From Deltaproteobacteria bacterium (lineage in GTDB: Bacteria > Myxococcota_A > Polyangia > JAAYKL01), in NCBI GenBank assembly GCA_030621515.1, contig JAUXHN010000001.1:1-62370 (forward strand): a stretch of 62,370 nt of DNA. The letters are read 5' to 3'. Positions 13,582 to 57,851 of the stretch are shown here, in pieces. Below the pieces are notes generated by a model. The model did no database searches and had not been told where the DNA came from. It saw nothing but the letters and a program-made list of their open reading frames with translations. The translations under genes were made by a program, and so were the position numbers. Each line of letters starts with the position of its first letter. Position 1 is the first letter of the stretch.

Positions 13582-14586
13582 ATGGCAAAGAAAATCGCAA
13601 TCAACGGGTACGGTCGTATTGGTCGTTGCGTGCACAGGATCCTGGCCGCGGGAGGCAACCCCGATATCGAGCTTGCCGCCATCAACGACATCACCAGCCC
13701 CAAGATGCTGGCGCACATGTTCAAGTACGATTCCGTCCACCGCATCTTCCCCGGCAAGGTCTCGCTGGGAGAAAAGGGTATCGTTGTGGACGGCGTGGAG
13801 ATCCCTGTTTTCGCCCAGCGCGATCCCGCCGCCCTTCCCTGGAAGGAGCTCGGAGTGGAGCTGGTCCTGGAGTGCACGGGCCTTTTTCGTGACAAGGCCA
13901 CTGCGGGCAAGCACATCGAGGCCGGCGCCCGCAAGGTGATAATCAGCGCTCCCGGCAAGGATCTCGACGGGACCTACGTCATGGGGATCAACGATGAAGA
14001 ATACAAGAAGAACCAACCCGACGTGGTTTCCAACGCATCCTGCACAACCAACTGTCTCGCTCCGGTGGTGAAGGTCATCAACGACAAGTTCGGCATCGTC
14101 GACGCACAGATGACCACCATCCACGCTTACACCAACGATCAAGTGATCCTGGACCAACCACACAAGGACATGCGCCGTGCTCGCGCCGCAGCTGTCTCCA
14201 TGATCCCCACCACCACCGGCGCCGCACGTGCGGTCGGACTGGTGCTGCCGGAGATGAAAGGCAAGATCGACGGGCTCGCAATCCGAGTGCCAACGTCCAA
14301 CGTCTCAATTGTCGAGATGACCGCCAATGTCTCGAAGGAAACCACCGCAGAAGAGATCAACGCCGCTCTGAAGGCGGCGTCGCAAGGCGATCTGAAAGGT
14401 ATTCTCGCGTGCTCGGACGAGGATCTCGTCTCCATCGACTTCCTGGGCAACCCCCACTCCTCCATCGTCGACACCCAGCTGACCCATGTGATCAACGGCA
14501 AGAGCATCAAGGTCTTTTCCTGGTACGACAACGAGTGGGGATACTCTCACCGCATGATCGACATGGCCGTGATGATGCTGAGGTAG
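13582..14586 (+). CDS. gap: Glyceraldehyde-3-phosphate dehydrogenase
   Basis: AAGGAG at 13568-13573, then MAKKIAINGYGRIGR (NAD-binding). Active site 'SNASCTTNCLAP'. 'WYDNEWGYS'. Confidence 0.95.
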   Translation: MAKKIAINGYGRIGRCVHRILAAGGNPDIELAAINDITSPKMLAHMFKYDSVHRIFPGKVSLGEKGIVVDGVEIPVFAQRDPAALPWKELGVELVLECTGLFRDKATAGKHIEAGARKVIISAPGKDLDGTYVMGINDEEYKKNQPDVVSNASCTTNCLAPVVKVINDKFGIVDAQMTTIHAYTNDQVILDQPHKDMRRARAAAVSMIPTTTGAARAVGLVLPEMKGKIDGLAIRVPTSNVSIVEMTANVSKETTAEEINAALKAASQGDLKGILACSDEDLVSIDFLGNPHSSIVDTQLTHVINGKSIKVFSWYDNEWGYSHRMIDMAVMMLR

Positions 14587-14588
14587 AC

Positions 14589-15785
14589 ATGGACTTATCC
14601 AGAATCTCCAGCCTCGACGATCTGAACATCGAGGGACGGAAAGTCCTGGTCAGGGTGGATTTCAACGTGCCTTTCGACGACCGTGTGATCAGCGACGACA
14701 CCAGGATCCGGGCGGCGATGCCGACCATCGACTATCTCCTCGATGCCGGAGCGAGAGTGATCCTCATGAGCCACCTCGGGCGTCCAAAGGGCAAGCCCGA
14801 TCCCGATCTGAGCCTCGAGCCGGTCGCAATGCGCCTGGCCGAAATCCTCGATGTGGGCGAAGTCACCCTGACGGATTCCTGCGTCGGGGACGGCGCGAGG
14901 CAAGTGGTTCGTGATATGCGCGACGGACAGGTGGTCCTGCTCGAAAACCTCAGGTTCCACATCGGCGAGACCGCTAACGACCCTCACCTGGCCAAGGAAC
15001 TCGCCGCCCTCGGAGACATTTACGTCAACGACGCTTTCGGAACCGCACACCGCGCTCATGCCTCCACCGTGGGCGTCCCGTCCATCGTCAGGGACAAGGC
15101 AGCGGGCTTCCTGATGCAAAAGGAGATCCAGTCCTTGAGCGCCTTGCTCGGAGATGTCGCAAAGCCGTACATCGCCGTTCTGGGAGGCGCGAAAGTATCG
15201 GGCAAGATCGGGATAATCGAGAATCTTCTCGAACGCGTGAACATCCTCATCATCGGTGGAGCGATGGCCAACACCTTCATCGCCGCCACCGGCGGGGCTG
15301 TTGGAAAATCCCTGGTCGAGGAGTCCAAATTCCCACTGGCCCGCGATCTGCTCGCGAGGGCGCAAACCAGGGACGTGAAGATTATTCTCCCGACAGATGT
15401 AGTTGTGGCCGGCGATCCCGATTCCACGACAACGCAGGTTGTTCCGGCTTCGGAGGTCCCGGAGGATATGATAGCTTTCGACATCGGACCTCAGAGCAGC
15501 GCCGTCTTCAAGGAAATACTCGGACGGGCAGGCACCATCCTTTGGAACGGTCCAATGGGAATGTTCGAAAAAGAGCAGTTCTCCACGGGCACCACAACAA
15601 TTGCAAAGGCCATCGCCGGTGCGTCGGCACTGTCCGTGGTGGGCGGCGGCGATTCCGTTGCGGCGGTCAAACGCTCCGGGCTCGGGCGCGGGTTCGACCA
15701 TATCTCAACCGGAGGCGGGGCGTCCCTGGAGCTACTCGAAGGTAAAATTCTACCAGGCATTACAGCCCTGGTTTCGGAGGTTTGA
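14589..15785 (+). CDS. pgk: Phosphoglycerate kinase
   Basis: ATG 2 nt after the gap stop. 'GRKVLVRVDFNVP', 'ILMSHLGRPKG', 'NDAFGTAHRAHAS', 'WNGPMGMFE', 'STGGGASLE'. Confidence 0.95.
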   Translation: MDLSRISSLDDLNIEGRKVLVRVDFNVPFDDRVISDDTRIRAAMPTIDYLLDAGARVILMSHLGRPKGKPDPDLSLEPVAMRLAEILDVGEVTLTDSCVGDGARQVVRDMRDGQVVLLENLRFHIGETANDPHLAKELAALGDIYVNDAFGTAHRAHASTVGVPSIVRDKAAGFLMQKEIQSLSALLGDVAKPYIAVLGGAKVSGKIGIIENLLERVNILIIGGAMANTFIAATGGAVGKSLVEESKFPLARDLLARAQTRDVKIILPTDVVVAGDPDSTTTQVVPASEVPEDMIAFDIGPQSSAVFKEILGRAGTILWNGPMGMFEKEQFSTGTTTIAKAIAGASALSVVGGGDSVAAVKRSGLGRGFDHISTGGGASLELLEGKILPGITALVSEV

Positions 15786-16631: not shown

Positions 16632-16973
16632 ATGGAAGCCGGCATTAACGATGCAGGGGGTCTGACCGTGTCAAATCTTCAGATAACCATTCCGTCGACA
16701 AAAATTGCCGATTTCTGCGCGAGGTGGGGAGTGCAGGAACTCGCGGTTTTCGGATCGGTCCTGAGAAGCGATTTCAGTCCAGCCAGCGATATCGATCTCC
16801 TGATCGAACTGGATTCATCTCGAAAACTCGGAATGTACGATTGGGTAGAGATGATTGAAGAACTGAAAGAGATTTTTGGTCGCGAGGTAGACCTCGTTGA
16901 AAAGGGCGCCATCAGGAACCCCTTTAGACGAAGGGCGATAATGGAAAATCTCAAGGTGATTCATGCCGCTTGA
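16632..16973 (+). CDS. mntA: MntA-type nucleotidyltransferase antitoxin (type VII TA)
   Basis: Minimal nucleotidyltransferase motif 'VFGSVLRSDFSPASDIDLLIE' (GS...DxD). 113 aa. Overlaps the downstream HEPN gene by 11 nt. Confidence 0.8.
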   Translation: MEAGINDAGGLTVSNLQITIPSTKIADFCARWGVQELAVFGSVLRSDFSPASDIDLLIELDSSRKLGMYDWVEMIEELKEIFGREVDLVEKGAIRNPFRRRAIMENLKVIHAA

Positions 16974-17319
16974 GAAGGACGACACCGTCTATCTATGGGA
17001 TATGCTTGATGCGGCAAAGGCAATAACAGAGTTTGTCAGCGGCAAGGCGCATCGGGACTACGAAAAAGATAGGATGCTGCGCGGCGCGGTGGAGAGGCAC
17101 GTGGAGATAATCGGGGAAGCTGCAAAAAGAGTTTCGGAGGGGTTCAGAGATGTTCACTCGGAGATTCCCTGGCGTGGGATTGTCGGAATGCGTAACGTGC
17201 TGGCCCATGACTATGGAGAGATCAAGGACGACAAAATGTGGATCCTTGCCACCGAGTCTATCCCCGCGCTGGTAACGGTGCTTGAGCCTCTGGTTCCATC
17301 GAGCGTTTCGGAAGAATGA
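16963..17319 (+). CDS. hepT: HepT-type HEPN (DUF86) toxin
   Basis: 118 aa. Rx4H HEPN motif 'RNVLAHDYGEI'. Typical pairing with and overlap of the upstream MNT gene. Confidence 0.8.
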   Translation: MPLEKDDTVYLWDMLDAAKAITEFVSGKAHRDYEKDRMLRGAVERHVEIIGEAAKRVSEGFRDVHSEIPWRGIVGMRNVLAHDYGEIKDDKMWILATESIPALVTVLEPLVPSSVSEE

Positions 17320-17386: not shown

Positions 17387-18625
17387 TTACACCGAAGGGG
17401 GATCGACCACCTTGCCCATGAAGATCAGGGCGCCGGAGTGGTGGTCATGGATGACAAAAATAAAGGGTCGGTCGATCACGATCTCTTCGGGCATGGATGC
17501 TCCAGCATCGATCTCTACAGAGGTGGCCGCGGCTGCCTCGGTCCCTTCCTCGTCCACGCGGATCCAGCTCTTGTGCTTCACCTCGCTGATAAACAGCTGT
17601 TGGTCCGGGCTCATTTTGCCGAAGTCGGCCTCCCCTTCAATGAACGCCACCTCCATGCCCAGGGTTGAAAGCACATCCACCAGGCTTGTATCGAACTCCA
17701 TTTCGAACCGGGGCATCTTGAACGTGACATCGCTCTCGTAGAGCCCGTCGAGGGTGGACCGCCAGATCTCCGGGGTCAGCTCCGCCGCCACGTCGTCGAG
17801 GGCAACCTCCTCCTTCGGCAGCAGGATCGTCATCGCAAAGTAGCCGCTGCCATAGGTCAGGGAGAAGGCCTGGAACCGCTCCTGATCGACGCGGGAGATG
17901 AGGCCGTCGCTGTCGAGCACCATCATCTTCACCGTCTTGTCGGTCTCGTCGTCGATATGGAAGGTTTCGTCGTAGGTCGCTTCCTCATCGAATTTACAGG
18001 TCCAGTCCGCCTTGAAATAAACCGCATTTATCAGGAACATCACGGTGGCAGGGTCGATGGGACTGTCGACGATATCGGTGATCTTGCCGCCGGTGTGCTC
18101 GGAGACCCAGTCGTTGATCGTGCTCGACGCGGACGGCGCTGCGAAGTCAAGAGACGAGACCACCGCGGCGAAGTAGGCCTCGCAGGTGGCGATGAACTCA
18201 TCAAACACCGTGAATTCGTCGCTGTACCAGATAGAGTTGGCGATCTCCATGGTCACCTTTCTGTCCATACCGATGAGCAGATCGATCAGACTCCGATAGT
18301 TCTCATTGATCTGATCGCTGGTCAGATCTCCAAAGCTCAGCGCCTCGCGCATCCCCTCCTCGGTGCTTCCCAGTGCGCCGTTGTAGGCCATGCCCAGCGC
18401 CATGGAGACGCTCAACGGCGAGATGAATAGATTGTCCCCATCCGACTCGTCAATGACCGCGTCGAAGAGCTCGAGACCGAAACCGTTGCTCGCCGTGACC
18501 AGAGCCTGCTCCTCGGCGGTCAGCGGGCGCGGCGGCTCCTTGACCGAATCGCAAGCGCCGATTATCAGTGTCACCGTGGCGATCGCCGCAACCACGAGAA
18601 CCCGGTGATTTTTCCGTGTATCCAT
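17387..18625 (-). CDS. Serpin (serine protease inhibitor), lipoprotein-type signal
   Basis: 'SPLSVSMALGMAYNGA'. Inhibitory hinge 'EEGTEAAAATSVEIDAGASMPEE'. C-terminal 'IDRPFIFVIHDHHSGALIFMGKVVDP'. N-terminal VVAAIATVTLIIGAC. Confidence 0.85.
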   Translation of the reverse strand: MDTRKNHRVLVVAAIATVTLIIGACDSVKEPPRPLTAEEQALVTASNGFGLELFDAVIDESDGDNLFISPLSVSMALGMAYNGALGSTEEGMREALSFGDLTSDQINENYRSLIDLLIGMDRKVTMEIANSIWYSDEFTVFDEFIATCEAYFAAVVSSLDFAAPSASSTINDWVSEHTGGKITDIVDSPIDPATVMFLINAVYFKADWTCKFDEEATYDETFHIDDETDKTVKMMVLDSDGLISRVDQERFQAFSLTYGSGYFAMTILLPKEEVALDDVAAELTPEIWRSTLDGLYESDVTFKMPRFEMEFDTSLVDVLSTLGMEVAFIEGEADFGKMSPDQQLFISEVKHKSWIRVDEEGTEAAAATSVEIDAGASMPEEIVIDRPFIFVIHDHHSGALIFMGKVVDPPSV

Positions 18626-18731
18626 GTGTCACCGCCTTACTGACCCCGATGGGTCACTGATTCGCCCGAATAGGTGAAGATTGTCGCTCAATATCGATTA
18701 TATCAATTGCGCCACATCATTGGGAACCTTC

Positions 18732-18761
18732 TTGACATAGACAGAAGTCGAAGGGTAGAAA
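18732..18761 (+). promoter_or_regulatory. Candidate sigma-70 promoter of secG
   Basis: TTGACA (18732-18737), 18-nt spacer, TAGAAA (18756-18761). ATG at 18770 with no SD in between, implying a very short or absent leader. Sequence-only guess. Confidence 0.3.
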
Positions 18762-18769
18762 ACCAACCC

Positions 18770-19231
18770 ATGATTACTCTTCTGACAGTGTTACATGTTA
18801 TCTTCTGCCTGTTTCTCATTCTGGTGATCTTGCTTCAGACCGGAAAGGGCGCGGGAATGGGTGCTGCTTTCGGCGGCGGCGGCAGTTCCACCGTTTTCGG
18901 GCCACGGGGAGCCGGTTCATTCATCGGAAAGGCGACCGGCGTGGTCGCGGCCCTTTTCATGATCACTTCGTTGTCACTGGCCTTCTTCTCATCGTCCAAG
19001 AGCACAAGCCTCGAAAAACGAGCGCTGGAAAATGAAGAACGGCAAAGCGAGGAGGTCGATATCGCGGATCTTTCCGACAAATCTCCCGCAGAAGAAGCCG
19101 ATCAGAAAAAAAACGTTGAGGCCGCTTCGCCGAAAGTCAAATCAGACGCCGGCGCCGCGGGAGCGACGGACTCCGGGACGGCAACCGCCGATAATCCCGC
19201 TGTTCCGGACACCTCAGACGAAGTAAAATAA
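18770..19231 (+). CDS. secG: Preprotein translocase subunit SecG with long acidic C-terminal extension
   Basis: '[73 protein letters not shown]', then ~70 aa of low-complexity E/D/A/S tail. Confidence 0.85.
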
Positions 19232-19293
19232 AAGCCTGACACTAAAAATCTACAACTTTCGGGCGGGTACATCGCCCAAGGGAGGAAGACCAG

Positions 19294-20481
19294 ATGACCA
19301 GGAGAACAAAACAGCTCTCCGGCGTCGCTGCCCTCTGTCTTGCAGCTGCGTTCTGCTTCTGTAGCTGCGGCGGGGACAATGCGGACGCGGAAAAGAAGGA
19401 CGCGTCGACTGGCGAGCAGTCGGCAACTGCGGACGCCACATTGGCTCCCAAGATCGCATCGGCACAGCCCACCTTCAACTTCGGAGAGATCAAACAGGGG
19501 AAGAAGGTCGAGCACATCTTCAAAGTAAAGAACGAGGGCAAGGCGGACTTGATTATCGAGCGCGCCAAAGGCTCGTGAGGTTGCACAGCGACCGTCGTTT
19601 CGACGGACGCGATTCCCCCGGGCGGGGAAGGTGAAATCAAGGTATCCGTAAACACGAGGGGCCGTTCCGGTAAGCTCAAGAAGCGCATCAGCGTACTCTC
19701 CAACGACACCGAACAACCGACATTCTTCCTGAACATCGAAGGCGAAGTCATAGTGGACGTGGAAGTCGCCCCGAGGCATCTCTCTTTCGGCCAACTCAGC
19801 AAGAACGAGAAAGCAACGCGCGAGTTCAGGATCACAGTCAGAGAACCCGAGAAGGTCAAGGTCGTCGAGGTAAAGATGGATGACGATCGGTTCGTTCTCA
19901 AAAAGGTTGACGGCATTCTCGAGTCCAACTCCAGCTGGGAGATCACATTCAAGGGAACCAGGAAGGTCGGGCGCGTGATGGCCAGCGTCGAGGTGCGCTT
20001 CACCGGCTCCGACGTTACGAACGCCAAGGTTCCGGCGCGGGTCAACGTCGTCGGCGATCTCCAGTACACGAAAAGCCTCTACTTCCACAGGGAAGGGGAC
20101 GGCTACATCGAGAGAGAAATCGTATTCTCGTCGCGATCCGGAAAGAACGTTCACATTAAAAAGGTCGAAGATTCGGACGGTCTTCTGGGAGTCGATATCT
20201 CCGTTCCCAAAGGCAAGAAGGCCATAGTGAAGACAAAAGTAGCGGATCCCAAGGGGGACTACAGCAAGCCCTCAAGACATGCGCTGAAGGTCTTCACCAG
20301 CGATCCGGACGAGTCCGAAGTGGACATCCGTTACACCATCTCGAACCGTCTCCCCGGAAGGCAGCCCCACATGCGAAAAGGGGGTATACGACGGGGAGAC
20401 CGCGGGGTCAGCGGAATCAACGCTCCGCTGGGCAAACCATTGACCGTGAACAAGAAGAAAGAGGGGGAGGCACCAAAATGA
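19294..20481 (+). CDS. DUF1573-domain lipoprotein with one in-frame TGA (19576-19578): candidate selenoprotein, alternatively a pseudogene
   Basis: ORFs 19294..19578 and 19753..20481 share a frame, and the gap is open apart from the TGA. Read-through gives 'PTFNFGEIKQGKKVEHIFKVKNEGKADLIIERAKGS[TGA]GCTATVVSTDAIPPGGEGEIKVSV...ISVLSNDTEQPTFFLNIEGEV', a full DUF1573 signature with TGA at the first Cys of SCGCT. GGGAGG RBS before ATG 19294. Confidence 0.6.
19588..19610 (+). promoter_or_regulatory. Hairpin 9 nt downstream of the in-frame UGA (candidate bacterial SECIS)
   Basis: GCG-A-CCGUC(G)-UUU-(C)GACGG-A-CGC: 3 bp, an A.A mismatch, then 5-6 bp. The G/U-containing apical loop starts ~21 nt from the UGA. 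No covariation data are available. Confidence 0.45.
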
Positions 20482-21230
20482 AATCGACCATGGCTTTTGC
20501 CCTGATTACATCGATAGCTTTTTTTGCGCTTGGGTGCTCTCCCACACCTGTCGAGATCAAAACGGAGAAGGAGAACTACATTCTGGACGAGGCCGGCGCC
20601 AAGGATCAGATCAAAGTCTCTATCCTGGATGCGGATGGCGACAAGATCACCGAAGGCCTGGAAGTGGTCTATTTTTCGACTGATACCAAGATCATCAGGC
20701 TTGGTCAGCAGGACGGCACAATAGAGGCCAAGGCCTCCGGCGAGGCGAACGTGGAGATCGAAGTGGTCGGCACCAAGATCAAGCTCGACGTTCCCGTCAG
20801 GGTAAAGATCCCCAGCGCCATAGAGCTGTCTCACGAGAAACTCCGACTGTGGACCGGTCAGGTCAAGAAGAATGTCTGCTCCTGGGTTCAGAGCGAAAAG
20901 GGCGCCTACATCGAGGGCATGATACCCGAGTGGGCAAGCGAGGACCCCACCATCGTTTCGGTGGAGCAGATACAGGACCCCGCGAACGACCCCAAGCGGA
21001 ACCGCAGCTACGTCAAGCTCGTGGGGGTAAAATCGGGCGATACTTACATCCTCACCAGCTTCCGACACCTCTCCAGGTCCATCCGCGTTCGCGTCTACGA
21101 CGAGGACGAAGAGGTCACGCTGGCCGGGCAACGACTCGGAAAAAAGGCGCCGGAAGGCGAAGAGGAAGAAGAAGTGAAGAAGAAGTCAAAAGAAAAAAAG
21201 AAGAAGAAGTGGAAGAAGAAGGAGAAGTAA
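20478..21230 (+). CDS. Lipoprotein with bacterial Ig-like (Big_2-like) domains and poly-Lys/Glu tail
   Basis: ATGA overlap with the upstream stop. MKSTMAFALITSIAFFALGC lipobox. 'VVYFSTDTKIIRLGQQDGTIEAKASGEANVEIEV' and 'WASEDPTIVSVEQ...VKLVGVKSGDTYI' resemble Big_2. Tail EEEEEVKKKSKEKKKKKWKKKEK. Confidence 0.6.
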   Translation: MKSTMAFALITSIAFFALGCSPTPVEIKTEKENYILDEAGAKDQIKVSILDADGDKITEGLEVVYFSTDTKIIRLGQQDGTIEAKASGEANVEIEVVGTKIKLDVPVRVKIPSAIELSHEKLRLWTGQVKKNVCSWVQSEKGAYIEGMIPEWASEDPTIVSVEQIQDPANDPKRNRSYVKLVGVKSGDTYILTSFRHLSRSIRVRVYDEDEEVTLAGQRLGKKAPEGEEEEEVKKKSKEKKKKKWKKKEK

Positions 21231-24200
21231 CGACTCCTCTTTGCCACCCACCCCCACCTGAGCACACCCACAATCACGGAATCGCGGCTCGACCCCCTCG
21301 CTCAGGGGGATCGATTGTCCCTGCCCTGCGTCTGCCTCGACAGGTTGTTGCGCCTCGGTGAGAGCGATCTGCACCCTCTCGATATCCGCAGCGCCCATGG
21401 GCGCCCGGGCGTGAGCTTCAACCGTATATTCGCCGAGCTCGTCATACTCGTAATATATAGTCCCGGCATCGTGGAAGGACGGATCGGCTCCGTCGCCGAA
21501 ATCGATCTCCAGGCTTTCCAGGGGACCGCCGGTGTACTCCACGTCCAGGATGAGATATCTGTCCGTGGTTATGGCCTGGACGGACAGGTCGATTCGTTCG
21601 GAAACCCACCACATCAACGACTCGAATAGCTCCTGACGCCCGGCCGTCAACGGGGTGGCGCTGCCGACCCTCTCGAGGCCGAAGCTCAACAGCGCCGCAC
21701 GATACTTGAGCGTCTCCATCTCCATGTACTCGCCGTAGCCGATATAAGGGTCAAAGAGCACGCCCATTGCCCCGACTCCCCCCCCAAAAGGATCGCCGTA
21801 CATCTGCAGGAACGGTTCAAGGAAAATATCCGGAAGCCCCGGCCCCATTATCAACCCGATCTCACCTGCCATGACCAGATCCCCGATTCCATCAGTCTCG
21901 GGACCGATGTCGAGGGGCATACCCACCATGGAGGGGGCCCCGTCGATGGGGTGTACCAGATAGTCGTCGAGATCCACCACATCCTGGGTGTACTGATCGT
22001 AGAGAGGGAAGGATCCGCCCGTCATGCCTCCCATGAACCCGTGGATCCTCGAGTGCTCGTTTTCCCTCAAGGGCCCCTGCCCAGTAATGACGATGTTTCC
22101 GCCCTTCGATGCGTATGTAGAAAGGGCATCGAAGGTGTGCCTTGCGATAGTGCCCTTGTGGGACACCTGGTCGTCACCGGTGAAAACCAGCACCACAAAA
22201 TGCCGTAGAAGCTCTTCGAGTGTGGGCGCGGCGATCCCATCGTGTAACTGGTACACCGTGTAGGCCAGTCCCGCCTCCTGCGCCATTTCCGTGTACAAAT
22301 CGATCAACGCTTTATCGTCGGGATGGCGAAAGGACATGTCCAGCAGCATGAGCTCGTATTCCAGTGGCGGAAACACGCGATAGTGGTAGGGGATGGTCAC
22401 TTGTCGAGCCCCTGATTCGAGCAGCACGCGCCCGGTATACTCCCCGGCCGGAGCGTCGAGTGGCGCCTGTAGGGCCACGGTCAGCGCTCCATCCGTCAGC
22501 ACGATCGTATCTCCGCTCGTCGGAGCCACCTGGGGATCGAAGGAATCCTGGAGGTGATGCCACTCCAGTTCCACATCGCCGTCAGACGCGAACGGGCCGC
22601 CGATCTGCACCGTTGCCGCAAAGAGCGTCCCCGCATGTCCTTCCCCAAATGAAAAGGCGCAAGGGATCGCAAAAGACAGCGCATCGGACGCCTCTGCCAG
22701 ATCCATCAGTCCCGCGCCGATATCGAGTATCCGGAAGTATCGCTTGAGGGGCAGACGCGCGCTCCCAGTAAGTGTGGACTGCACCTCCCGAGGATCGAGG
22801 TCCGGATATCTCTGTCTTACCAGCGCAGCAGCGCCTGCCACGTGGGGAGCGGCCATGGATGTCCCCGACTTCAAATCCCAGGGATCTCCGCTATTTCCGA
22901 CCGAATGCGCCTGCGCGGACAGCACCCTCACCCCCGGCGCCACGATATCCGGCTTGAGCACAGGGTCGTCCGTGGGGCCACGCCCTGAAGATCCCGCCAT
23001 GGCCTCCATCGAGCCGGCACTGAAGTACGAATGCATCCCATCGTTGATAGTCGCTGTTGCGCCGGGATTGTCGATGACCCATTTTTCCAACTCGATCCCG
23101 TCGATGTTCCCGATCTGAACCGCCGGGATCGGAACAGAAACGCCGCCCATTGTTATTGGCTCGGCGTGGTCCACGTTATTGAAGATGATCACCGCCGGCG
23201 CTCCTGCCAGGTATGCGTTCGTCACCTTTGAGGAGAACGTGCAGTTTCCCCTTTCGATGAGCGCTATGGCTCCGTCGAAGGCGTCCCACGGGAAGGCGAG
23301 GCATCCGTCGTTGTTCGTTCCCCCGCCTGCCGTTCTGGCCGAGACAACCTGAAGCGGCCCGACCGGATCGTCATCGAAGGAAGGGCTGATATTGCCCTTG
23401 ATGGCCGGCATACCTGCCAGGTTGGCGGGCACCGGATCCGGAGTAATCACTTCCACGAGTCCAGCGAAGTACCGCCCCGCGTCGAAAGATCCGACGGTCA
23501 ACACTTCGAGCAGGGTGCCCGGATGGGATATCGTACCCGGTCCACCGCCTTCGTTTCCCGCCGCGAAGACCACCACGGCGCCCGCGTCGATTGCCGAGGT
23601 ATACACCACTGACGCCGCCGTACCTTCCACCATGTCGTCGGGCCCGCCCCAGGAGCACGAAATGACGTCAGCCCCGTCGGCAACAGCGTCCTCGAAGGCG
23701 GCCATGAGTTCCGGATCGTAAGCTCCTGACTGGCCCGATTCGGCGGTATAGAAGACCTTGTAATTCATCAGGTAGGCACGCGGGGCCACACCGCTCACCG
23801 TCACCGGCGTACCGGAAAGGTCGAAGACCGTATCCAGATTACCCGCCACGATACCCGCGCAATGGGAGCCGTGACCTCTGTGATCCACCGGATCCTCAGT
23901 ATCCTTTTCCAGATTGACGGGATCGCCCGATCGGAAATACGCCCGCGCCGCTATGACCTTTGCGGTGGTGAATGCGGTTTCTCCCAGCGGATATCCCCCA
24001 GGCATCGAAAACTGTGCGGGATCGAAGAACGGATTGAGAATATCTATCCCCGTATCGATGACCGCAACGCGTACGCCCTCCCCTGCGAACTCCTGCCCTC
24101 CGAGGCTCTGCCAGTAGTCGCTCACGCCGATCATGTCCAGGGTCGCGTCCAGGGTGGGGGTGTAGAGGATCGTATCCGTTCGCGTTACTGATTTCACACC

Positions 24201-24563
24201 GGGAAGGCGCGCCAATTCCTCCCTGGAAACGCCGGATACTACAAGGCCGTTGAAGAGTATCGAGTACTCATGTTCTACATTAGCTTCCGGCCAGTTCCCA
24301 TGGAGTTCCTTGCGGAATTCGCCATGGCTCTCATAAAGGTGCCAGAGACATTTTTGGGCCTGGTCGCTACTGAGATCGAGCTTGCCGCCCCGCAATCGGG
24401 GAACGGATATCGACCCTTCACGGACAGCCGCCACCAGCGACGGCCGGTCCATTTGAACGATCCATCGGGCGGGTTTTGCGCTCGGATTATCCGCCGCGAC
24501 TATCCGTGGCGCGAGGAGCGCCAGCGCCGACAGGAGACCGCATGTAATTACTTTGTTCCACAT
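21186..24563 (-). CDS. Secreted S8 subtilisin-like serine protease with PA-domain insert and long C-terminal region
   Basis: Catalytic triad motifs 'VRVAVIDTGID', 'HGSHCAGIVAG', 'SGTSMAAPHVAGAAALV'. PA-like insert 'GAIALIERGNCTFSSKVTNAYLAGAPAVIIFNN'. Start set at ATG 24563 (MWNKVITCGLLSALALLAP signal). C-terminus 'DCGCAQVGVGGKEESLLLLLLPLLLLFFF'. Confidence 0.9.
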   Translation of the reverse strand: MWNKVITCGLLSALALLAPRIVAADNPSAKPARWIVQMDRPSLVAAVREGSISVPRLRGGKLDLSSDQAQKCLWHLYESHGEFRKELHGNWPEANVEHEYSILFNGLVVSGVSREELARLPGVKSVTRTDTILYTPTLDATLDMIGVSDYWQSLGGQEFAGEGVRVAVIDTGIDILNPFFDPAQFSMPGGYPLGETAFTTAKVIAARAYFRSGDPVNLEKDTEDPVDHRGHGSHCAGIVAGNLDTVFDLSGTPVTVSGVAPRAYLMNYKVFYTAESGQSGAYDPELMAAFEDAVADGADVISCSWGGPDDMVEGTAASVVYTSAIDAGAVVVFAAGNEGGGPGTISHPGTLLEVLTVGSFDAGRYFAGLVEVITPDPVPANLAGMPAIKGNISPSFDDDPVGPLQVVSARTAGGGTNNDGCLAFPWDAFDGAIALIERGNCTFSSKVTNAYLAGAPAVIIFNNVDHAEPITMGGVSVPIPAVQIGNIDGIELEKWVIDNPGATATINDGMHSYFSAGSMEAMAGSSGRGPTDDPVLKPDIVAPGVRVLSAQAHSVGNSGDPWDLKSGTSMAAPHVAGAAALVRQRYPDLDPREVQSTLTGSARLPLKRYFRILDIGAGLMDLAEASDALSFAIPCAFSFGEGHAGTLFAATVQIGGPFASDGDVELEWHHLQDSFDPQVAPTSGDTIVLTDGALTVALQAPLDAPAGEYTGRVLLESGARQVTIPYHYRVFPPLEYELMLLDMSFRHPDDKALIDLYTEMAQEAGLAYTVYQLHDGIAAPTLEELLRHFVVLVFTGDDQVSHKGTIARHTFDALSTYASKGGNIVITGQGPLRENEHSRIHGFMGGMTGGSFPLYDQYTQDVVDLDDYLVHPIDGAPSMVGMPLDIGPETDGIGDLVMAGEIGLIMGPGLPDIFLEPFLQMYGDPFGGGVGAMGVLFDPYIGYGEYMEMETLKYRAALLSFGLERVGSATPLTAGRQELFESLMWWVSERIDLSVQAITTDRYLILDVEYTGGPLESLEIDFGDGADPSFHDAGTIYYEYDELGEYTVEAHARAPMGAADIERVQIALTEAQQPVEADAGQGQSIPLSEGVEPRFRDCGCAQVGVGGKEESLLLLLLPLLLLFFF

Positions 24564-24632
24564 CTGCAAAGCCGAAGTATAATGCTTTGCCGACAATTTG
24601 GCATTAACCATGACTACTTTAAAGGAAATGAT

Positions 24633-25139
24633 ATGAGCAAGACCCTGTGGGCTCCATGGAGGATGGACTACATCCTGGGACCGAAATCCGGCAAATGCGT
24701 GTTCTGCGAAGCGTGCGAGGGCGGCGAAGAGCGCCGCGAGGAGAACATGGTTCTGGCGGCGTGCCCGGAGGCTTTCGTGATAATGAATCGCTATCCGTAC
24801 ACCCACGGTCACATCATGGTCGTCCCCACCAGACATTTGTCCAACCTGGAGGATATGACACCAAAGGAGCAGTCCGTTTTCTTCGAGCTGGTGGTAAATG
24901 CGCAGGCCGCCCTCCGGGAAGCCCTGAAACCCGGAGGCCTGAATATGGGAATGAACCTGGGGAAAGCTGCTGGCGCGGGAATCGCGGATCACCTTCACAT
25001 TCACATCGTCCCTCGCTGGGACGGCGACACCAACTTCATGCCCCTGCTGGCGGACGCGAGGGTCATGCCCGAGCACATGGACGAAACCTACAGGACGCTG
25101 GTTCCGTTCTTCGAAAAGCTGGGATCCAACCAGTGCTGA
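24633..25139 (+). CDS. HIT-family nucleotide hydrolase/phosphorylase
   Basis: 'MSKTLWAPWRMDYI...CVFCE'. Histidine triad 'DHLHIHIVPRW'. A perfect TATAAT at 24577-24582 lies upstream. Confidence 0.85.
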   Translation: MSKTLWAPWRMDYILGPKSGKCVFCEACEGGEERREENMVLAACPEAFVIMNRYPYTHGHIMVVPTRHLSNLEDMTPKEQSVFFELVVNAQAALREALKPGGLNMGMNLGKAAGAGIADHLHIHIVPRWDGDTNFMPLLADARVMPEHMDETYRTLVPFFEKLGSNQC

Positions 25140-45282: not shown

Positions 45283-48200
45283 CTATGTTCCGATCACTAT
45301 TCCGAGTGTCTCGCGAAGCTTGAAGTACTGCTCGGAGATGCTGAACAGGACCAGTTCCTTGATCTTCTCCTTGGCCGGAATCTCCTCCACTCCACCCGTC
45401 TCCGCCTGGATCATCTTTGCGGCCGTCTCCAGATCGTTTGCCAGCAGGAACCCTGCGCGACAAGCGGTTATCTCCACGGTCTTGATCCAGACCTTCAAAT
45501 CCGCCTGTTCACCTGAGTTGATGAACTTTTTGACGATCTTGGACAGATTCTCCGTTTCCATCGGGTTGAGGTTCTGACGAAGCGCCTGAACGTACTGGGC
45601 CAGAGATCCAGACTTGTCCTTGGGCAATTTGAAGTCCGGCTGGCCGATCTTCATGGCCGCGAGCAGGAGGTTCTTGAGCTCACCGCGGGTCGGGAGGACC
45701 CAGCGAATGTAATGCTCAGGCCGGTAGTAAGCCAGATGCTTTGTGACCATGAACAACAGATCCTGCGGCGAGTACCCGGACAGCAGGCTCGCCCCACAAG
45801 CCGACGCCATGGGATCCGTAACCGCGAAGTTGAGCCCGCCCGGCTTGTCGTCCTGGATATACAGGTCCGGCACTACCGGGATGTTCATGACCTGGGCCGC
45901 GTAGAAGAAGGTCTTCGAGAAAGTCAGGGTATCATTTACCGGTCGCTTCTGGTTCTTCTTGAGCCCAAACGCCTTGATGGGCTGAACCTTTATAGTGCGC
46001 ACCGACCTGGTGACCAATTCGAAGATCTTGCCGATGTAAACGGATTCTTCCTTGTGGAATAAATCCTTGATCCATCGCTCGTTGTCGAGCCTCGCCTGGG
46101 CCCTGACACTGCCCCTTGTGCGATACTGCTCGAAGAACTGCTGCTCCTCGGTGTCGGCCTTCTTGAGGAAGGCCAGGGTTGAGCACAGGCACCAGGCCTT
46201 GTCGTACTGGCGATGATCGAAATAGAGCTTCCGAAGCGCCTTGTAGGAATCGACCCGGTAGGGGTTTTTGTTGATCAGGGCCTGGTGCTCGGCAATGGCG
46301 TCGTCGAGCTTGTCGGGCATTTTCATGTAGAGCTCGGCCAGGATCTCGTGTCGCATCATGTTGTCCGGATCAAGGCCGGCCGCCATCTTGAACGCCTCGG
46401 CCGCCGCCTCCAATTGCCCCATCCTTGTACGGTAGATCTCACCGAGGAAGTGCCATAGGTTGATCTCGAGTTCCTGCTTGTCACCTCCGCCAACGCGATG
46501 GAGCATCTTGCGGTAGTTGCGCTCCAGGTTCTTCCAGTCCTTTTTCTGGGTGAGTATTCTGTCGATGGCCTCGAAGGCCTTCAGGTTCTCCAGACTCGCG
46601 TCCAGCGATCTGTTAAAGAAATCCACCGCGTCCTCGGCGCTCTTGATCTCGTCGCGGTAGATGACCGCCATGGAATAGAAGAGCCGACCGAGCTTGATAT
46701 CATCCTGCTCCATATCCGTGACCTTCAGGATGATCTCCACGACCTTCTGCCACTGCTTGGTGGTCTGGTAGAGTGGAAGCATCTTGTGAAGCACCGGCCT
46801 GTTTTCCGGTTTCAACTCCGAGGCCTCGGCATACGAAGAGATAGCCTTCTGTGGATTCTTCAACCTCTCCTGCCAGATATCGCCAATGTCCACCATGAGA
46901 TCGAATTTGTGGTCGTCGCTCTGCACCGCATCGATGAGTATCTTCTTGAAATGAATCACCTGCTCGAAGTTCTTCTGCTCCGCGTGTAGGCCGATAACCT
47001 CCTCGAGCGTGGGCTCATGAGATGGATCGATCTCGAGCGCCTTGTCGAACATGTTGAGCGCCTTGCGGCGTTCTTTTATCTGCGCCTTGATGTGTCCAAG
47101 CCTGTAGAAGATATTGACGATCTCTTCCTTGCCCTGGTCGTCCCTGTGATGGACGAGCACCATCTGGTAGAGCTTGAACGTCTTGTCCCAATCCTCCATC
47201 CGATAAAGAATATCAGCCAGCCCGAGCAAGGTTGGCAGGTGCGATGTATCCATGTCGTAGGCTGACTGGTAGGCCTTGAGGGACTTCTCCAGGTTGCCTC
47301 TCCGGTCCGCCACCATTCCGAGCCTGCGCTGGAGCGGTTGCATCTCGGATGATTCGCGCTTGCCGCCCAACCTTACCAACATATCCAGCATCAACTCCGC
47401 GTCTTCCCATCTCTCCTGTTTGATGTAGACATCCACCAGAGGCTCCGCCGCCTCCTGGTTATCCGGATCGGATTGCAGTGATCGCTCGAACCATTCGATG
47501 CCCGCGTCCTCTTCGCCCAGCTTGTTCCGGGTAAGATCTCCCAGTATGAACTGGAGCTTGGACTTGGCGCGATCGTTCTCGGTAAATTCCTGTTCGGCCT
47601 CCAGCACTCTGGCCGCCGCGAGCCACTCTCCATCGTCGATATGGATATTCCTCAGGGACTCGAGACACGGCAGGTGGCCGGAGTCGATATCCAGCGCCGA
47701 TCTGAAATGCTCGACGGCGCTTACGCGATCCATGAGGTTTTCCGCGTTCAACTTGCCGAGGCGGTAATACAGATCCACTTTCCGATCCGGCTCCACGACC
47801 GTCTGGGCCAGCCGATGCAAGGTATCGTGAGCCGCAGACCAATCTTCGGTCAAGGTCTGCAGTTTAGCCAGCTCGTCGAGCGCGGACTCGTGCTCCGGCT
47901 CGATATCCAGGATCTCCTTGTAGGCGTCCATCGCGTGATCCATATCCTCCAGCTCGGAGAAATAGGTCTTGCCGATGACCTCGTAGAGAACCACGCGCGC
48001 TTCCCTGTCGTGAATGGTTTCCACGTGCCGTTCGAGTGTTCCTATCAGATCCTGCCAGCGACCCGTCTGCCTGTACAGGCGTTCGAGAGCCTGCAATGCG
48101 CTCTCATGGCTCGGATCGATATCGAGAATCTCTTCCAGACGCTCGACGGCCTTATCCAGGTTCACGAACTCCTCTTCGAGCATCGCTGCAATTCGAGTGA

Positions 48201-51200
48201 GCAGATCTATGCGTTCGCGTTCGCTGCCTGCATATTCCAGCTGCAACTCCAGTATATCGAGCAGGTCCGGCCAGGATTCGATCTTGGAGAACAACCGCTC
48301 CAATCCCTTGAGTGAAGGCAGGTTGCTCTGATCGATCTCCAGGCTCTTGCGATATTCCTCGATGGCCGCGTTGGTATCGTTGAGGTTGTCCTCCTGGATC
48401 TCGGCGACCCGCAGATGAGTTGCCACGATGGCTTCAGGATCCTCCAGCACATCTATCTTGCGCCTCAGGATCGGTATGAGCTCCCGCCAGTTCCTGGCGG
48501 CCCCGAAAATCCTCTCCAACGCGATAAGCGCCGGCTCCAGGCTCGGGTCGATATCCAGCGCCTTCTTGTAGGCTTGCCTGGCCTCCGGCAAATCATCCAG
48601 GTATTCCTCGAAGATCTGACCCAACTCAACGAGTATGCCCTTCTTGCCCTCGTCATCCTGCTCGGATTCGATGGCTCGTTTCAGAACCTCCACCAGCTCC
48701 GCCCACTGTTTGGTCCCACGATAGAGCTCTCCCATGAGCTTCAGCGCCGCAACGTTGTCCGACTCGAGCTGCAGCACCTGCTGGTAATATGCTATCGCGT
48801 ACTCTGGATGACCCAACTCGTCTGCGTACCACTTGCCGATCTTGAGACACAGGTTGATCTGGGTGGGCTTGTCGTCCATGGACTGAAGCACCTGGTTGCA
48901 CGACGCGAGCAGATCGTTCCACTTGTCCGTAACCGAAGCCAGCCGCTCCAGGTGTTTTGCCGTCTCGTCATTGGAATAGTCGGTTGTGAAAGCGCGCTGC
49001 ATGACCTCGAAAGCGTTTTCAGTCTGGTCCAACTTGTCTTCATAAATAGCGGCCGCCTTGTGAAGTAACACCACCTCGTCCGCCGGCTCCGCCACGTAAT
49101 TGAGACGGGTGGAGTACATCTTGATGAGCTCCTCCCAGGTCTCCTCCTCGGTCATTATTTCGACCATGCGGTCGAAGGCATGCTCATGCAGCGGCGACAT
49201 CTCCAGGATGCGCGCATACGGCCCCTTGGCCCGCAGCGGCTCGACAAGCTTCTCCTCGATGGCGAGCGCCTGTCCGAGCCAGGTACCCACCTGCTCGTCT
49301 CCCTCGAGCAACCCGCCCTTTCGCCCGAGCACTTCTACGTACTCCTCCCACATGGCCTGCTCTTCGTAGAGCTTTTCCAACGCAATTGTGGGATTGATGT
49401 CCACCGGATCCACATCGGCGGCCTTTACCCATGCGTCGATGGCGTCCATGGGTCGCTCGAGCGTATCCGAAAAGATAGTCCCCATCTTGGAGTAATATTC
49501 TTTAATCTGCTCTGCCTCGAACTGGGCAGCGCCAGCCTCTATCACTCTATCGAGGATCTCGATGAGATCCTCCCACTCCTGGTTGGCCTCGTGGATCTTC
49601 GCGATGGCCTGCAAGGCGCTGATGTTGTCCGGATCGATGCTCAAAACATTCTGCCAGTTGTCTATGGCGTTGTGATCTCTCTCAAGACACTCACCCCACA
49701 CCAGACCAAGTTGGCTGTATAGTTTGACCCGGGTCTCGTCTTCATCGGCGATGGTGACCGCGCGTTCCAGCACGTCGACCAGTTCACTCCAGTTTTCCTC
49801 CCTCGAGTAAAGGTCGGCCAGAGCTCCGAGGGCCATGCCGTCCTCACCGAGGATATCGAGCACATTGCTCCACAGCTCCACCGACTTTGCGATGTTACCA
49901 AGACAATCGGAGGAGATGGTGGCCATCTTGGCAAAGAGATCGGCCTGGGCGGCTTCACTCTCGACCGCGTCCTTCATCTTCTCATATATGGTGTACAGTT
50001 CCGCCCATGCCTCCCTGTCGGCATAGATCATCTCCAGGTGATCGAGGGACTCCCTGTGTCCCGGGTCCAGATTGTCGATAATGCGATGGTAGGCGACCCT
50101 GGCCTTCTCGAACTCGTCAAGCTGTGACTCGTACACATTGCCCATCCGATGAATGTATGCAACCTGCTCTTCCTCTGAAGACACAGTATTGGCGAGCATT
50201 TCCAGGATATCGACCAGGCGTTCCCACTCCATGTACTGGGTGTAGATCCGATCGAGTGCGGAGAGGACCTCCCTGTCGTCTCCGCCCAGCTGCAGGCATC
50301 CGCGGTAGGCCTGCTCTGCCCTGGCGGCGTCGTGAAGCTCCTCCTCGGCGACCCGCGCGAGCTTCTTGGCCACGAAACGCTTGACCTGAACGTCTTCCTT
50401 CTTGGTGAACAGATCCTGGTAGAGATCCGCGAGTTCTGTCCAGGCGTCGGAGCTTCCCGCGAGCCTCTCCACCTCTTCGCCGGAATGCTCGTTGAACGGA
50501 TCCTCTGAACAGGCACGACAGTACCAGTTGAAGGCTTCGACACCATCCAGCAGACGCTCCTCGTACAGCTCGGCAATGCGGTGCATCAAGGATACGCGTT
50601 CCTCCACCTCCTCTATGTCCTCGAGTTGTTGCCCGTGCAGATTGACCAGTTTCTCCCACTCCGCATTCATGCGGCACAGGGGCTCCAGAATTTCCGCTAT
50701 CTCTCCCCTCCTCTCACCCTCTGCGAACAGAAGTTCCAGCGCGGCTACGGACTGATCATGGGCCGGCTCGGCCGCCAGGATATCCCTGTAGGTTTCAACC
50801 GCCTTCTCGACGTTCTCCAGGTCCTGCTGGTAGAGTCGACCCAACCGGAACTGCACACCGAGGCTCTCCTCGGGATCCTCCATGATAAGCGCTTCCTTCT
50901 GAAGCGTGGAAGCGAGATCCTCCCAGCGTTCGGCTATCTGGAACAGCTTGTCCAGGCGGAGGATCGCCTCGCGGTTCTCCACATCGAACTCGAGAACCTT
51001 CTGGAACCTGATAATGGCGTCATCCGGACGGTCCAGTTTATCCTCGTAAATCGCGGCAACCCTGGACCCGATCGTCACGGCGTTCTCGGCCTCGACAACA
51101 TCCACGAGCTGCTGATCGAACAGGTTCGCCAGATCCTCCCACCTTCCGGTCTGGTCGGCGATATCATCCAACCTCTCGAGCGTCTTCTCGTTGACATTAT

Positions 51201-54200
51201 CCACCGCCAGCGCCCTCGCGTAGATGTCAAAAGCCTCGTTGGGAACGTCCAGGTGTAGATCGCTCTCCAGGAACTCCGCTATCTGGTGGAGGATCTCCAC
51301 CCTCTGCCAGTTATCCTCCGTGACCATGAGCTTGACCTCGAGCACACCGATAAGCTTTCGCCACTCGGCCAGATCCTGGTAGATGGGCTCGAGCACCTCG
51401 ACTGCGAGCAACTGCTCATCCTCGCCTGCCACCAGTTCCTCGAGTATGGTTATCGATGGCTCGTGCTGCGGCGAGATCGTCAAAATATCCTTGATATACT
51501 CCACGGCTCGCGGGATATCCTCCAGGTGTTGGACATAAAGCTCACCGATACGATACTTGTACGAAATAGCCTCGTCCGGATCCCCCGTGAGTTCCACCTC
51601 GCGCTCCAGAACAGACAGCAGGTCGTGCCACTCCTCGGTTTCCGTGAACAGAACGTCGAGCCTCTGTATTGCCTGGAAATCATCCGGGTCGAACTCGATT
51701 ATCCTCTGATAGGTTTCGATGGCCTTCCGAATGTCGCTCATCTCGCCCTCGTACATGGCGCCGAGGATGTACAACACTTCCTTCTTCTCCTCGGGAGTCG
51801 AGACAAGATCCACCTTGCGATTGTAAATCCCCTGAAGATCGTCCCAGCGCTCCAACCTCAAGTAGAGGCCCTCGAGCTGCGCGATGGCGTTTAGATCATC
51901 CTCGTCGATATCGAGGATCCGCATGTAGACGCTGATGGCCTGATCCGTGTTTTCGATAATCTCTTCATAGATCTGGCTGGCCTTGAACAGTAACCCCTTC
52001 TGCTCCTCGAGATCGGTGACCATCTCTACTTTTTTGAGATAGATGTTCGCCAACTCGGGATAGTTCTCGGTTACCTGGTAAGCACCCTCGAGCGACGTGG
52101 CCGCTTCGATGTGCATCGGATCAATGGCGAGCACCTCCCTATAGTGCTCGATCGCCTTGTCCACATTTTGCAGTTGCTCCTCGCAGATGACGGCGATCTT
52201 CAGGTGGTAGTCGGCAGCCAGGTCCATGTTGTCCATGCCTTCGATCGTGGACGCGTAAATGACGACCAGATCGTCATACAACACCAGCACGCGCGCCAAT
52301 CGATCGAGTTCTTCTCTTGTTCGCTCCTCGGACGGATCCTGCGCCAGGGCCCGGCCCAGAGTCTTGAACGCCTTCTCCGGCTCGTCGCCGGCTGTCTCGT
52401 ATAGCCCCGCTATCTCGTGCAGGAGATCGACCTTCCGGGCGATGGTCTCCTCCTCAGCGATCATTATCTCAAAAACCCCTATGAGTTTCTCCCACACTCC
52501 GAGAGTGCGATAGATCGGCTCGAGAATCTCGGCGACCTCTTTGCGGAACTCCTGCACCTCTATGATTCGCTCGAGGGCATCGATCGCCGGCTGGTTCTGC
52601 GGATCCATTTCGATGATCTCGCGGTATATCTCGACAGCCGCATGCAACTCATCGAGCCGTGTTTCCCTGAGTCCAGCCAGGCGAAGCTTGAGATCCACAA
52701 TCCTGTCCGGATCTCCCTCGAGGCCGAGCTGTTGCTGAAGGTTGTCCGCCAGGTCGGTCCATTTTTCCAGTTGAACGTAGAGCTTGTCCAGATCCTGCAG
52801 CGCGTTCGAGTTGGACGGGTCGATGTTGAGGATCTCCTTGAGACAACCCACCGCATCCTCGGGCCGCTCGAGCATCTCCTCGAAGATCATCGACATGTGA
52901 CGAAAGATCTGTTCCTTCTCAGTCGCGTCCACGGTCGCCTCGACCTTGCTCCTGAGCACCTCTATCAGCTCGGGCCATTTCTCCGTCCTCGAATAGATCT
53001 GCTCGAGGGCTGCGATGGCCTCGGCATTTTGCTGATCCAGATTCAGGGCGGCGTTGTACGCGGCGATCGCATTGTCGACGTTCTCGAGCTGGGTGTCGTG
53101 AATCCTGGCAGCCCTCAGCCACAGGTCTTTCCCGACTTCAGGATCTTCTGCATTTTGCCCGCCTTCTTCGAGAAGAACTACGAGATCGTTCCAGGAATCG
53201 AGGATCGCGGTGATCTCCTCCATCTGTTCCAGCGCTTCTTTCTGCTCCGGGTTGATCTTGAATGCGCGACTGTACGCCACAAAGGAGCGCTCCGGAGAGC
53301 CTATACGCTGGGAGAAGATCGTTCCCTTCTTCATGAGATAATCGATCTTTTCAAAATCATCATCCGAATGTTGAAACAGAATTTCTATCGATTTGATCAA
53401 ATCCTCCCAATCCTCTGCCTCCTCGTACAACGGAGAAAGGACCGAGGCAGCTTCCGCCTGCTGCGACTCGTCCTCGAGTAGACCCTCGAGGGCGGCTATC
53501 GACATCTCATGATCGATTTTGACGGCCAGAACTTCCCTGTAGCAATTGAGCGCCCGAGCCTTGTCACCGAGATGCACTTCGAGAACCTGTCCCAGGCGGA
53601 ACTTGAGATCCAGCTCGTCGTCTTCCCCCATGACGCCCTGTTCCAGCTCCCGATCTATGATCCCGGACAGATCCTCCCAGCGTTCCTCTTTTGTGAAAAG
53701 ACGATCCAGGGCAGCGAGAACCTTGGGCTCGTCGCCGGCCATCTCTATTATCTTGTTGTAAACATTTATGGCCTTGTCCGAATCACCTATTTCCTCTTCC
53801 CACAGAAGCGCCTGGTTGTAGAAAATCTCTTTCTTCTCTTCATCGTCCTCCGCCATCTCTATGCGCTTGGCATATATTTCAAGAAGCTCCTCGTACCTGC
53901 CCATCTGGGCGAAAATCTTCTCGAGAGCCCAGACGGCGCGTGGGTTCTTGGGATCCTCCAGAAGGATGGAGTCGTAATGACTGAGGGCATCCTCCGGTCT
54001 TCCGACCTCCTCGTTCAGAACTCGAGCAAGCCTGAGGCGCATCTCGAACTTATCGCTGTCTTCAACGCTGATAAAAGCCTTCCCGTACGCCTCGACGACC
54101 TCTTCCCAACGGCCGGCCTTCCCGGCGGATCTCTCCAGATCATCCTGGGTTATAGAATCCGCGGGCATCTGCTCGAAGGCTTTGAGGAAGCCCTCGAAGG

Positions 54201-56808: not shown

Positions 56809-56831
56809 CTCTTCTAATTGCCTTCCGACCG

Positions 56832-57707: not shown

Positions 57708-57851
57708 GGAGTTGCTCCTGTTCTGTAGAGACACGTAATAGCAGGCAATTTTAGAGAATAGACGGGGGGATGTAAACCCCATCAAACGACGTTACGTACT
57801 ATTTTTTCAAAAACCAATCGAACCGTATTCTTTTTAACAAGAACAGCATCT

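Follow-up and report, generated by a model that had tools for sequence, protein, structure and literature searches.

A very probable selenoprotein gene of the known OS_HP2/DUF1573 family, with an in-frame TGA and a predicted export signal

The closest described relatives of the gene studied here are the OS_HP2 selenoproteins. OS_HP2 ("Olavius symbiont hypothetical protein 2") was introduced as a new selenoprotein family by Zhang and Gladyshev (2007, NAR, Table 2; PMC1976440), and their GOS study (Zhang and Gladyshev, 2008, PLoS Genet; PMC2398784) placed it under pfam07610, gave its motif as UxC and counted 2 Sec and 354 Cys homologues. Two reviews (2022, 2026) carry the family as "DUF1573 domain-containing protein, UGC" (PMC9312934, PMC13188914), and NCBIfam holds a profile for it, NF041425, "OS_HP2 family (seleno)protein". 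No report of experimental Se incorporation in the OS_HP2 family was found in the literature searched, and a search for Enhygromyxa together with selenocysteine returned no paper. The gene at 19294-20481 of the window, by which we mean the whole analysed stretch of 62,370 nucleotides, is a member of this already known and curated family, and Sec in the DUF1573 CGC motif dates from 2007. It has in common with OS_HP2 (NF041425) the domain, Sec at the first Cys of C-G-C, a stem-loop directly 3' of the UGA and a deltaproteobacterial-type host, and it differs in nothing essential. The published entries carry the motif and the domain only; to these the present locus adds a lipoprotein signal, two extra Ig-like domains, a basic tail and pgk-tpiA-secG synteny. 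Our additions to the family are minor and consist of the three-Ig-domain lipoprotein build, the clade-specific secG synteny and many TGA orthologues that score below the family cutoff.

Translation of the frame 19294-20481 on the forward strand gave 395 codons interrupted once, by TGA 19576-19578, and in the ORF listing the frame appears as the pair 19294..19578 and 19753..20481. This agrees with the initial annotation of the locus, which had described a single frame interrupted only by this TGA and, at 20478-20481, an ATGA in which the stop overlaps the start of the next ORF; the sequence shows both. GTG 19753 is indeed the first in-frame start past the TGA, and the 58 codons between them contained neither an in-frame start nor an RBS in the sequence and the ORF listing, but the GTG had been placed in the middle of the domain and in fact sits past the end of DUF1573. 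In public gene calls the gene is split into two pieces, P0031 (94 aa) and P0001 (242 aa), and the same two-piece call is present in cultured Enhygromyxa salina. When the window was scanned for other genes with an in-frame TGA, only off-frame shadows were obtained besides the OS_HP2 gene. We conclude, with high confidence, that 19294-20481 is one gene for an exported, probably lipid-anchored OS_HP2/DUF1573 selenoprotein of ~395 residues, in which the UGA would be decoded via a SECIS. The features of the locus are the following:

18674..19231, + strand: secG, directly upstream (PF03840)
19280..19285, + strand: Shine-Dalgarno-like GGGAGG, 8 nt 5' of the ATG, read from the sequence
19294..20481, + strand: full coding sequence of the proposed OS_HP2/DUF1573 lipoprotein, 395 codons including Sec95 (frame, PF07610, NF041425)
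19294..19368, + strand: predicted signal peptide with a lipobox-like F-C-S-C and predicted lipidated Cys25 (codon 19366-19368), identified by eye
19462..19749, + strand: DUF1573 (ASH/HYDIN-type Ig-like) domain, residues 57-152 (PF07610, PF22544 and NF041425 matches)
19576..19578, + strand: UGA almost certainly read as selenocysteine (Sec95), first position of U-G-C (column comparison across loci)
19582..19584, + strand: Cys97 of the U-G-C motif, read from the sequence
19588..19610, + strand: SECIS-like stem-loop GCGACCGUCG-UUU-CGACGGACGC, 9 bp with one A.A mismatch (sequence, folding and comparative pairing)
19750..20340 (approximate), + strand: two further Ig-like beta-sandwich domains matched by no Pfam model (P0013 model and Foldseek)
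20341..20478, + strand: basic low-complexity C-terminal tail RLPGRQPHMRKGGIRRGDRG...KKKEGEAPK (sequence), kept in the close relatives P0002-P0006
20478..21230, + strand: 250-aa ORF with a signal- or lipoprotein-like N-terminus, its ATG overlapping the selenoprotein stop (ATGA)

With Cys replacing the stop, the translation matched PF07610 (DUF1573) at 103.8 bits (gathering score 26.1), residues 57-152 aligning to positions 4-98 of 98, and PF22544 also matched the DUF1573 region (68.8 bits). The TGA lies within the domain and takes the place of the first Cys codon in the S-C-G-C-T motif, which here reads S-[TGA]-G-C-T. A complete domain with the TGA on this Cys is what the initial annotation had anticipated. 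When Sec was entered as Cys, positions 3-97 of the 98 in the NF041425 profile aligned to residues 58-152 with 105.1 bits, above the cutoff of 100. Only the window cleared this cutoff among the scored sequences (105 bits), as the other TGA orthologues obtained 85-98 bits and the Cys forms 60-75 bits. A threshold of about 80 bits would thus divide the TGA forms (85-105 bits) from the Cys forms. The TGA orthologues below the cutoff were labelled Nannocystaceae/Enhygromyxa, Zixibacteria and Ignavibacteria, and included both cultured E. salina strains. Many TGA orthologues score below the NF041425 cutoff and will therefore keep being mis-called as fragments; the split of the present gene in public calls can be corrected in its annotation.

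A protein search recovered the C-terminal fragment called in the window itself (P0001, 242 aa), together with five relatives at 78-88% identity, four of which are called as the same 242/243-aa fragment, while the fifth, P0002, is called as 261 aa from an earlier start. The set with ~50% identity is called throughout from (V/M)IPPGGEGEIK, just past the motif. A contig search for DNA encoding P0001 gave no match. For unbiased sampling, genome and metagenome collections were searched with degenerate DNA encoding IPPGGEGEIK, a peptide 12 codons 3' of the Sec/Cys column whose pattern leaves the Sec codon unconstrained, and 75 loci were found. These were counted alongside L001, L002 and the window in a codon tally of 78 rows, in which the column held TGA in 55 rows and TGC/TGT in 18; a contig end cut off three rows and two were divergent. 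The TGA loci were labelled mostly as Myxococcota, Nannocystaceae, Deltaproteobacteria, Zixibacteria and Ignavibacteria MAGs, and the TGC/TGT loci were Bacteroidota (Saprospiraceae, Chitinophagales, Lewinellaceae and Cyclobacteriaceae). The TGA thus occupies a conserved Cys column, as had been claimed from the window alone.

Peptide conservation in frame was present on both sides of the TGA in every case, and in 55 loci it extended through the 58 codons from the TGA to GTG 19753, at identities as low as ~35%. The nearest relatives, L018 and L066, also carry TGA and have 87-95% amino acid identity over the N-terminal fragment. TGA was found at every locus sampled from the clade closer to the window, which comprises P0002-P0016 and those IPPGGEGEIK loci that have a C-terminal extension. 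In E. salina SWB007 the DNA at the motif reads ACG TGA GGC TGT, and the peptide across the Sec column in E. salina is ...VQKT-U-GCTAAALSADAIPPGGEGEIK. The Cys homologues P0019, P0023 and P0026, which share the multi-domain build of the present protein, read (S/T)CGCTAT at the motif. One variant, L012, reads U-G-S and has kept Sec while the second Cys is gone, an indication that only Sec is essential. The Cys-type DUF1573 proteins of Bacteroidota (Saprospiraceae/Chitinophagales L003, L009, L013 and others; P0017) have the domain, S-C-G-C-T, IPPGGEGEIK and an N-terminal signal in common with the present protein. They differ in the TGC/TGT codon, in the lack of a selected hairpin (mean z -0.09, mean dG -3.5 kcal/mol) and in their single-domain build of 180-215 aa, and score 60-75 bits with NF041425.

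Bacterial SECIS elements of the E. coli fdhF type are minimal stem-loops ~11 nt 3' of the UGA that are bound by SelB. The stem-loop at 19588-19610 is likewise a hairpin within the ORF; it begins 9 nt after the UGA, and its UUU apical loop begins 19 nt after it. The hairpin had been reported at this position with a G/U-containing apical loop; the position was correct, but the loop itself is UUU above a closing G-C pair and contains no G. Compared with dinucleotide shuffles of the 71-nt stretch, the window hairpin was unremarkable (z -0.41), and its significance emerged only against synonymous-codon resampling, in which each locus was resampled with its own codon usage while the peptide was held fixed. 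By this measure none of 200 resamplings of the window folded as well (z -2.82). The TGA loci had a mean z of -1.86, with 39 of 40 negative and 20 of 40 at p<=0.05, whereas the Cys loci had a mean z of -0.09 with 1 of 16 at p<=0.05. A hairpin of at least 6 bp was found in 38 of 43 TGA loci (mean dG -11.6 kcal/mol), with the loop starting 15-21 nt after the UGA in 40 of 43; among the Cys loci such a hairpin was found in 3 of 16 (mean dG -3.5 kcal/mol). The stem-loop is under selection only where the codon is TGA, as a SECIS predicts.

Comparative pairing was analysed on a gap-free alignment (A2) of 43 unique TGA loci. The window's nine pairs were paired in 70% of the cells, a value reached in none of 500 column shuffles, and the covariation score in the window register was 0.245 against at most 0.141 in all slid registers. 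Pair 24-42 was found as GC, CG, GU, UG and AU. The initial annotation had looked to orthologues for TGA or Cys at the column and for a conserved stem-loop, and the relatives do hold one or the other, with the stem-loop conserved in the TGA loci. In sequence the apical loop is not conserved, and only 16 of the 43 predicted loops contain a G, although many loops, the window's included, would gain one if the closing pair opened. This lack of a conserved GU/G in the loop (16/43) and the register that shifts between lineages distinguish the element from the fdhF-type SECIS, and SelB binding is a prediction here. For other bacterial SECIS elements a conserved guanosine is drawn (figure legend, PMC1976440). 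RNAalifold on the 43 TGA loci chose an invariant CCCC/GGGG pairing and missed the SECIS hairpin. The CCCC/GGGG pairing arises because the codons of IPPGGEGE are selected, and no single consensus hairpin was returned because lineages differ by a few nucleotides in the register of the stem. Rfam gave nothing relevant, either for the whole window at the gathering threshold or for 19450-19750 at E<=10.

In-frame TGA codons can have other origins, and these were weighed against selenocysteine. Were the TGA a true stop, the locus would be a pseudogene, or two genes encoding a 94-aa fragment and a 242-aa protein from GTG 19753, and P0031 and P0001 are exactly what the gene callers give. TGA is also the commonest stop in the window, where it terminates 29 of the 51 greedy ORFs (>=80 aa), including the pgk ORF 14409-15785. 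Termination at this codon would, however, halve a beta-sandwich domain and leave the following 58 codons without a start or RBS up to GTG 19753, in spite of their in-frame conservation in 55 loci down to ~35% identity. Moreover, a nonsense mutation would not last at one codon across lineages labelled Myxococcota, Zixibacteria and Ignavibacteria, and homologous loci carry Cys at the column, so that we regard a true stop as very improbable. A sequencing or assembly error, with TGC or TGT as the true codon, would need only a one-base change to give Cys, and the window is a metagenome-assembled contig. Independent assemblies nevertheless agree on TGA: L018, L066, two assemblies of cultured E. salina strains and about 50 others. 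Among the E. salina loci, L001 and L007 show the TGA directly and L004 starts just past the codon. Since the closest relatives L018 and L066 also have TGA, a base-call error is excluded, and an error of any kind is hardly credible.

The UGA might also be read through without selenocysteine, either under an altered code (UGA as Trp or Gly) or by hairpin-stimulated insertion of a near-cognate Trp or Cys. The JGI gene call P0013 indeed writes W at the Sec column, and the loop has no conserved G. Sec machinery was likewise not encountered. ARAGORN found no tRNA-Sec in the 62-kb window and 28 related loci, and Pfam found no sel genes in 45 of the 51 greedy window ORFs (>=80 aa) and ORF 20478-21230, the window being part of a genome. 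The E. coli SelA, SelB and SelD queries had no tblastn match in 520 kb of window and related loci, a span uninformative for the whole genome. Against such read-through, the contig DNA of P0013 reads TCC TGA GGC TGC, and its W therefore comes from the gene caller's translation table and not from a TGG codon. The code is standard as well; an altered one was ruled out by the role of TGA as the main stop codon in the window, and the view that TGA is a normal stop for the neighbours and that the genome is not UGA-recoded was borne out by the ORF count given above. Moreover, a TGA at a conserved Cys with a stem-loop directly 3' is the accepted hallmark of selenoproteins, and it is as selenoproteins that the family is curated. 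We consider read-through without Sec unlikely to a high degree, and the in-frame TGA is real and almost certainly encodes selenocysteine.

The N-terminus carries a signal peptide by eye, with the lipobox-like F-C-S-C and Cys25 as the predicted lipidated residue. At the same place the orthologues have canonical lipoboxes (LLAC|G, VAAC|S, LTAC|G, LASC|K) or plain signal peptides, likewise identified by eye. Because lipoboxes or signal peptides recur at this position in the orthologues, export is a predicted trait of the family. The full-length orthologue P0013 was modelled with AlphaFold2. The model had a pLDDT of 92.6 and showed three tandem Ig-like beta-sandwiches, with the Sec column and the Cys in a tight turn joining two strands of the first domain. 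The region corresponding to 19750..20340 is conserved in P0002-P0016. Foldseek searches with the P0013 model returned only tandem ASH/HYDIN-type and cadherin-type arrays, and no thioredoxin or enzyme fold was among the matches; a PDB sequence search gave no matches. The initial annotation had proposed an exported U-x-C DUF1573 selenoprotein, and this proposal is supported by the TGA/Cys alternation, by the selection on the stem-loop in TGA loci only and by the conserved signal or lipobox.

The commonest class of prokaryotic selenoproteins are thioredoxin-fold thiol/selenol oxidoreductases with UxxC or CxxU motifs. Membership in this class was ruled out by the all-beta P0013 model, by the Foldseek matches and by the motif, which is UxC and not UxxC. 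Few selenoproteins that lack the thioredoxin fold are predicted to be exported, and the OS_HP2 family is one of them. A second comparison was made with SelD/SPS, a cytoplasmic enzyme of the PurM superfamily, in which the first Cys of a G-(C/U)-G-C-K loop is Sec in some organisms. The E. coli SelD loop reads GAGCGCK, and the N-terminal loop of SelD/SPS has the C-G-C tripeptide in common with DUF1573. The folds are unrelated, however, PurM-superfamily in SelD/SPS and an exported Ig-like domain here; the resemblance is at the level of the motif and serves as a lead.

In the proposed mechanism, the stem-loop 19588-19610 within the coding sequence would act as a bacterial SECIS and recruit SelB with Sec-tRNA(Sec), and UGA 19576-19578 would be decoded as selenocysteine. 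The ribosome would then read on through the rest of the DUF1573 domain, the two further Ig-like domains and the basic tail. In the folded protein, the U-G-C motif (Sec95, Cys97) would occupy the tight turn that links two strands within the first Ig-like domain. Outside the cytoplasm, U-G-C would most plausibly form a redox-active selenenylsulfide or a site for soft metals or chalcogens. For the three-Ig lipoprotein clade, a tentative proposal places the functional centre of an extracytoplasmic selenoprotein without a thioredoxin fold in the U-G-C turn. It could act as a PDI-like selenenylsulfide redox site of the C-x-C type or bind soft metals or chalcogens in the envelope, and might work together with the neighbouring S8 protease and with the lipoprotein encoded downstream, presumed to be co-translated. 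The gene is present in a cultured host (E. salina DSM 15201, SWB007), which makes it accessible to 75Se labelling and mutagenesis.

The gene order 5' of the OS_HP2 gene is pgk-tpiA-(MNT/HEPN pair)-serpin-secG. The secG gene adjoins OS_HP2 in 10 related loci and is syntenic in the window's clade. On the 3' side, ORF 20478-21230 is probably co-translated with the selenoprotein. It had been named a Big_2 gene, an assignment that could not be confirmed, as the ORF matched no Pfam family at E<=0.001. A homologue of this ORF is located downstream of OS_HP2 in L018, L026 and L031.

The gene neighborhood of the selenoprotein gene, a member of the DUF1573 selenoprotein family OS_HP2, was compared with that of related loci. 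The neighboring features in the window are as follows:

16632-17319 (+), MNT/HEPN-type pair (NTP_transf_2 and HepT-like), between tpiA and secG
17387-18625 (-), serpin gene, between tpiA and secG
18674-19231 (+), secG, directly upstream of the selenoprotein gene
20478-21230 (+), 250-aa ORF whose start overlaps the selenoprotein stop (ATGA)
21186-25076 (-), S8 subtilase with a PA domain, convergent, just beyond the 250-aa ORF

The selenoprotein gene was immediately preceded by secG in ten loci (L008, L018, L031, L041, L043, L047, L058, L064, L066 and L067). In four of these ten (L008, L018, L031 and L041) tpiA was located upstream of secG, and in three pgk was present as well, resulting in the gene order pgk-tpiA-secG-OS_HP2. 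This synteny between secG and the selenoprotein gene was clade-specific, being present in the clade of the window and absent in Enhygromyxa. Because secG follows tpiA without intervening genes in the sister contig L018, the MNT/HEPN pair and the serpin gene of the window look like an insertion. The serpin was also present in L066, which together with L018 is the closest relative of the window locus.

The 250-aa ORF had been labeled Big_2 in the initial annotation, a label that was left unconfirmed, as the ORF matched no Pfam family at E≤0.001. A homologue was located downstream of the selenoprotein gene in L018, L026 and L031. An S8 homologue adjoined the selenoprotein gene in four related loci (L008, L018, L026 and L064). 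In Bacteroides thetaiotaomicron, the iron-regulated set BT0211-13 comprises one gene each for a BACON-domain protein, for an S8 peptidase and for a DUF1573 protein (PMC10434189). DUF1573 and S8 proteins may be linked in function.

Immediately downstream of the SECIS-like stem there was an invariant CCCC/GGGG hairpin, formed by the codons that specify IPPGGEGE (AUUCCCCCGGGNGGGGAA; window 19612-19630, columns 46-64 in the gap-free alignment of 43 unique TGA loci). This hairpin may contribute to the recoding signal. The same peptide was, however, also found in the Cys forms, and it was part of the pattern used to search for the loci, so that its codons were selected for; the hairpin is therefore probably a by-product of peptide conservation.

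Two related loci retained the TGA but varied in or near the motif. L012 (1803-1871, -) reads AG-U-G-S-TAS, with Ser in place of the second Cys of the motif, and L057 reads U-G-C-A, with a spacer shorter by one codon. Another C-G-C tripeptide occurs in Escherichia coli SelD (L079:4966-6009, -), which starts with ...SHGAGCGCK; in some SelD/SPS proteins, Sec takes the place of the first Cys in this loop (U-G-C). The likeness between SelD and OS_HP2 is confined to this motif, whereas the SelD fold is unrelated.

Against the family model NF041425, TGA orthologues from lineages labeled Nannocystaceae/Enhygromyxa, Ignavibacteria and Zixibacteria scored 85-98 bits and did not reach the cutoff of 100; Cys paralogues scored 60-75 bits. 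Enhygromyxa salina was represented by strains SWB007 (L001/L007) and DSM 15201 (L004); the E. salina gene was split in its annotation into a 100-aa piece and a 290-aa 'hypothetical protein ENSA7_49150'.

Elsewhere in the window, a giant 3885-aa ORF (45283-56940, -) consisted of TPR repeats nearly throughout, and beyond it lay a second TPR protein (56832-57785) followed by a HEAT-repeat protein (57852-58589).
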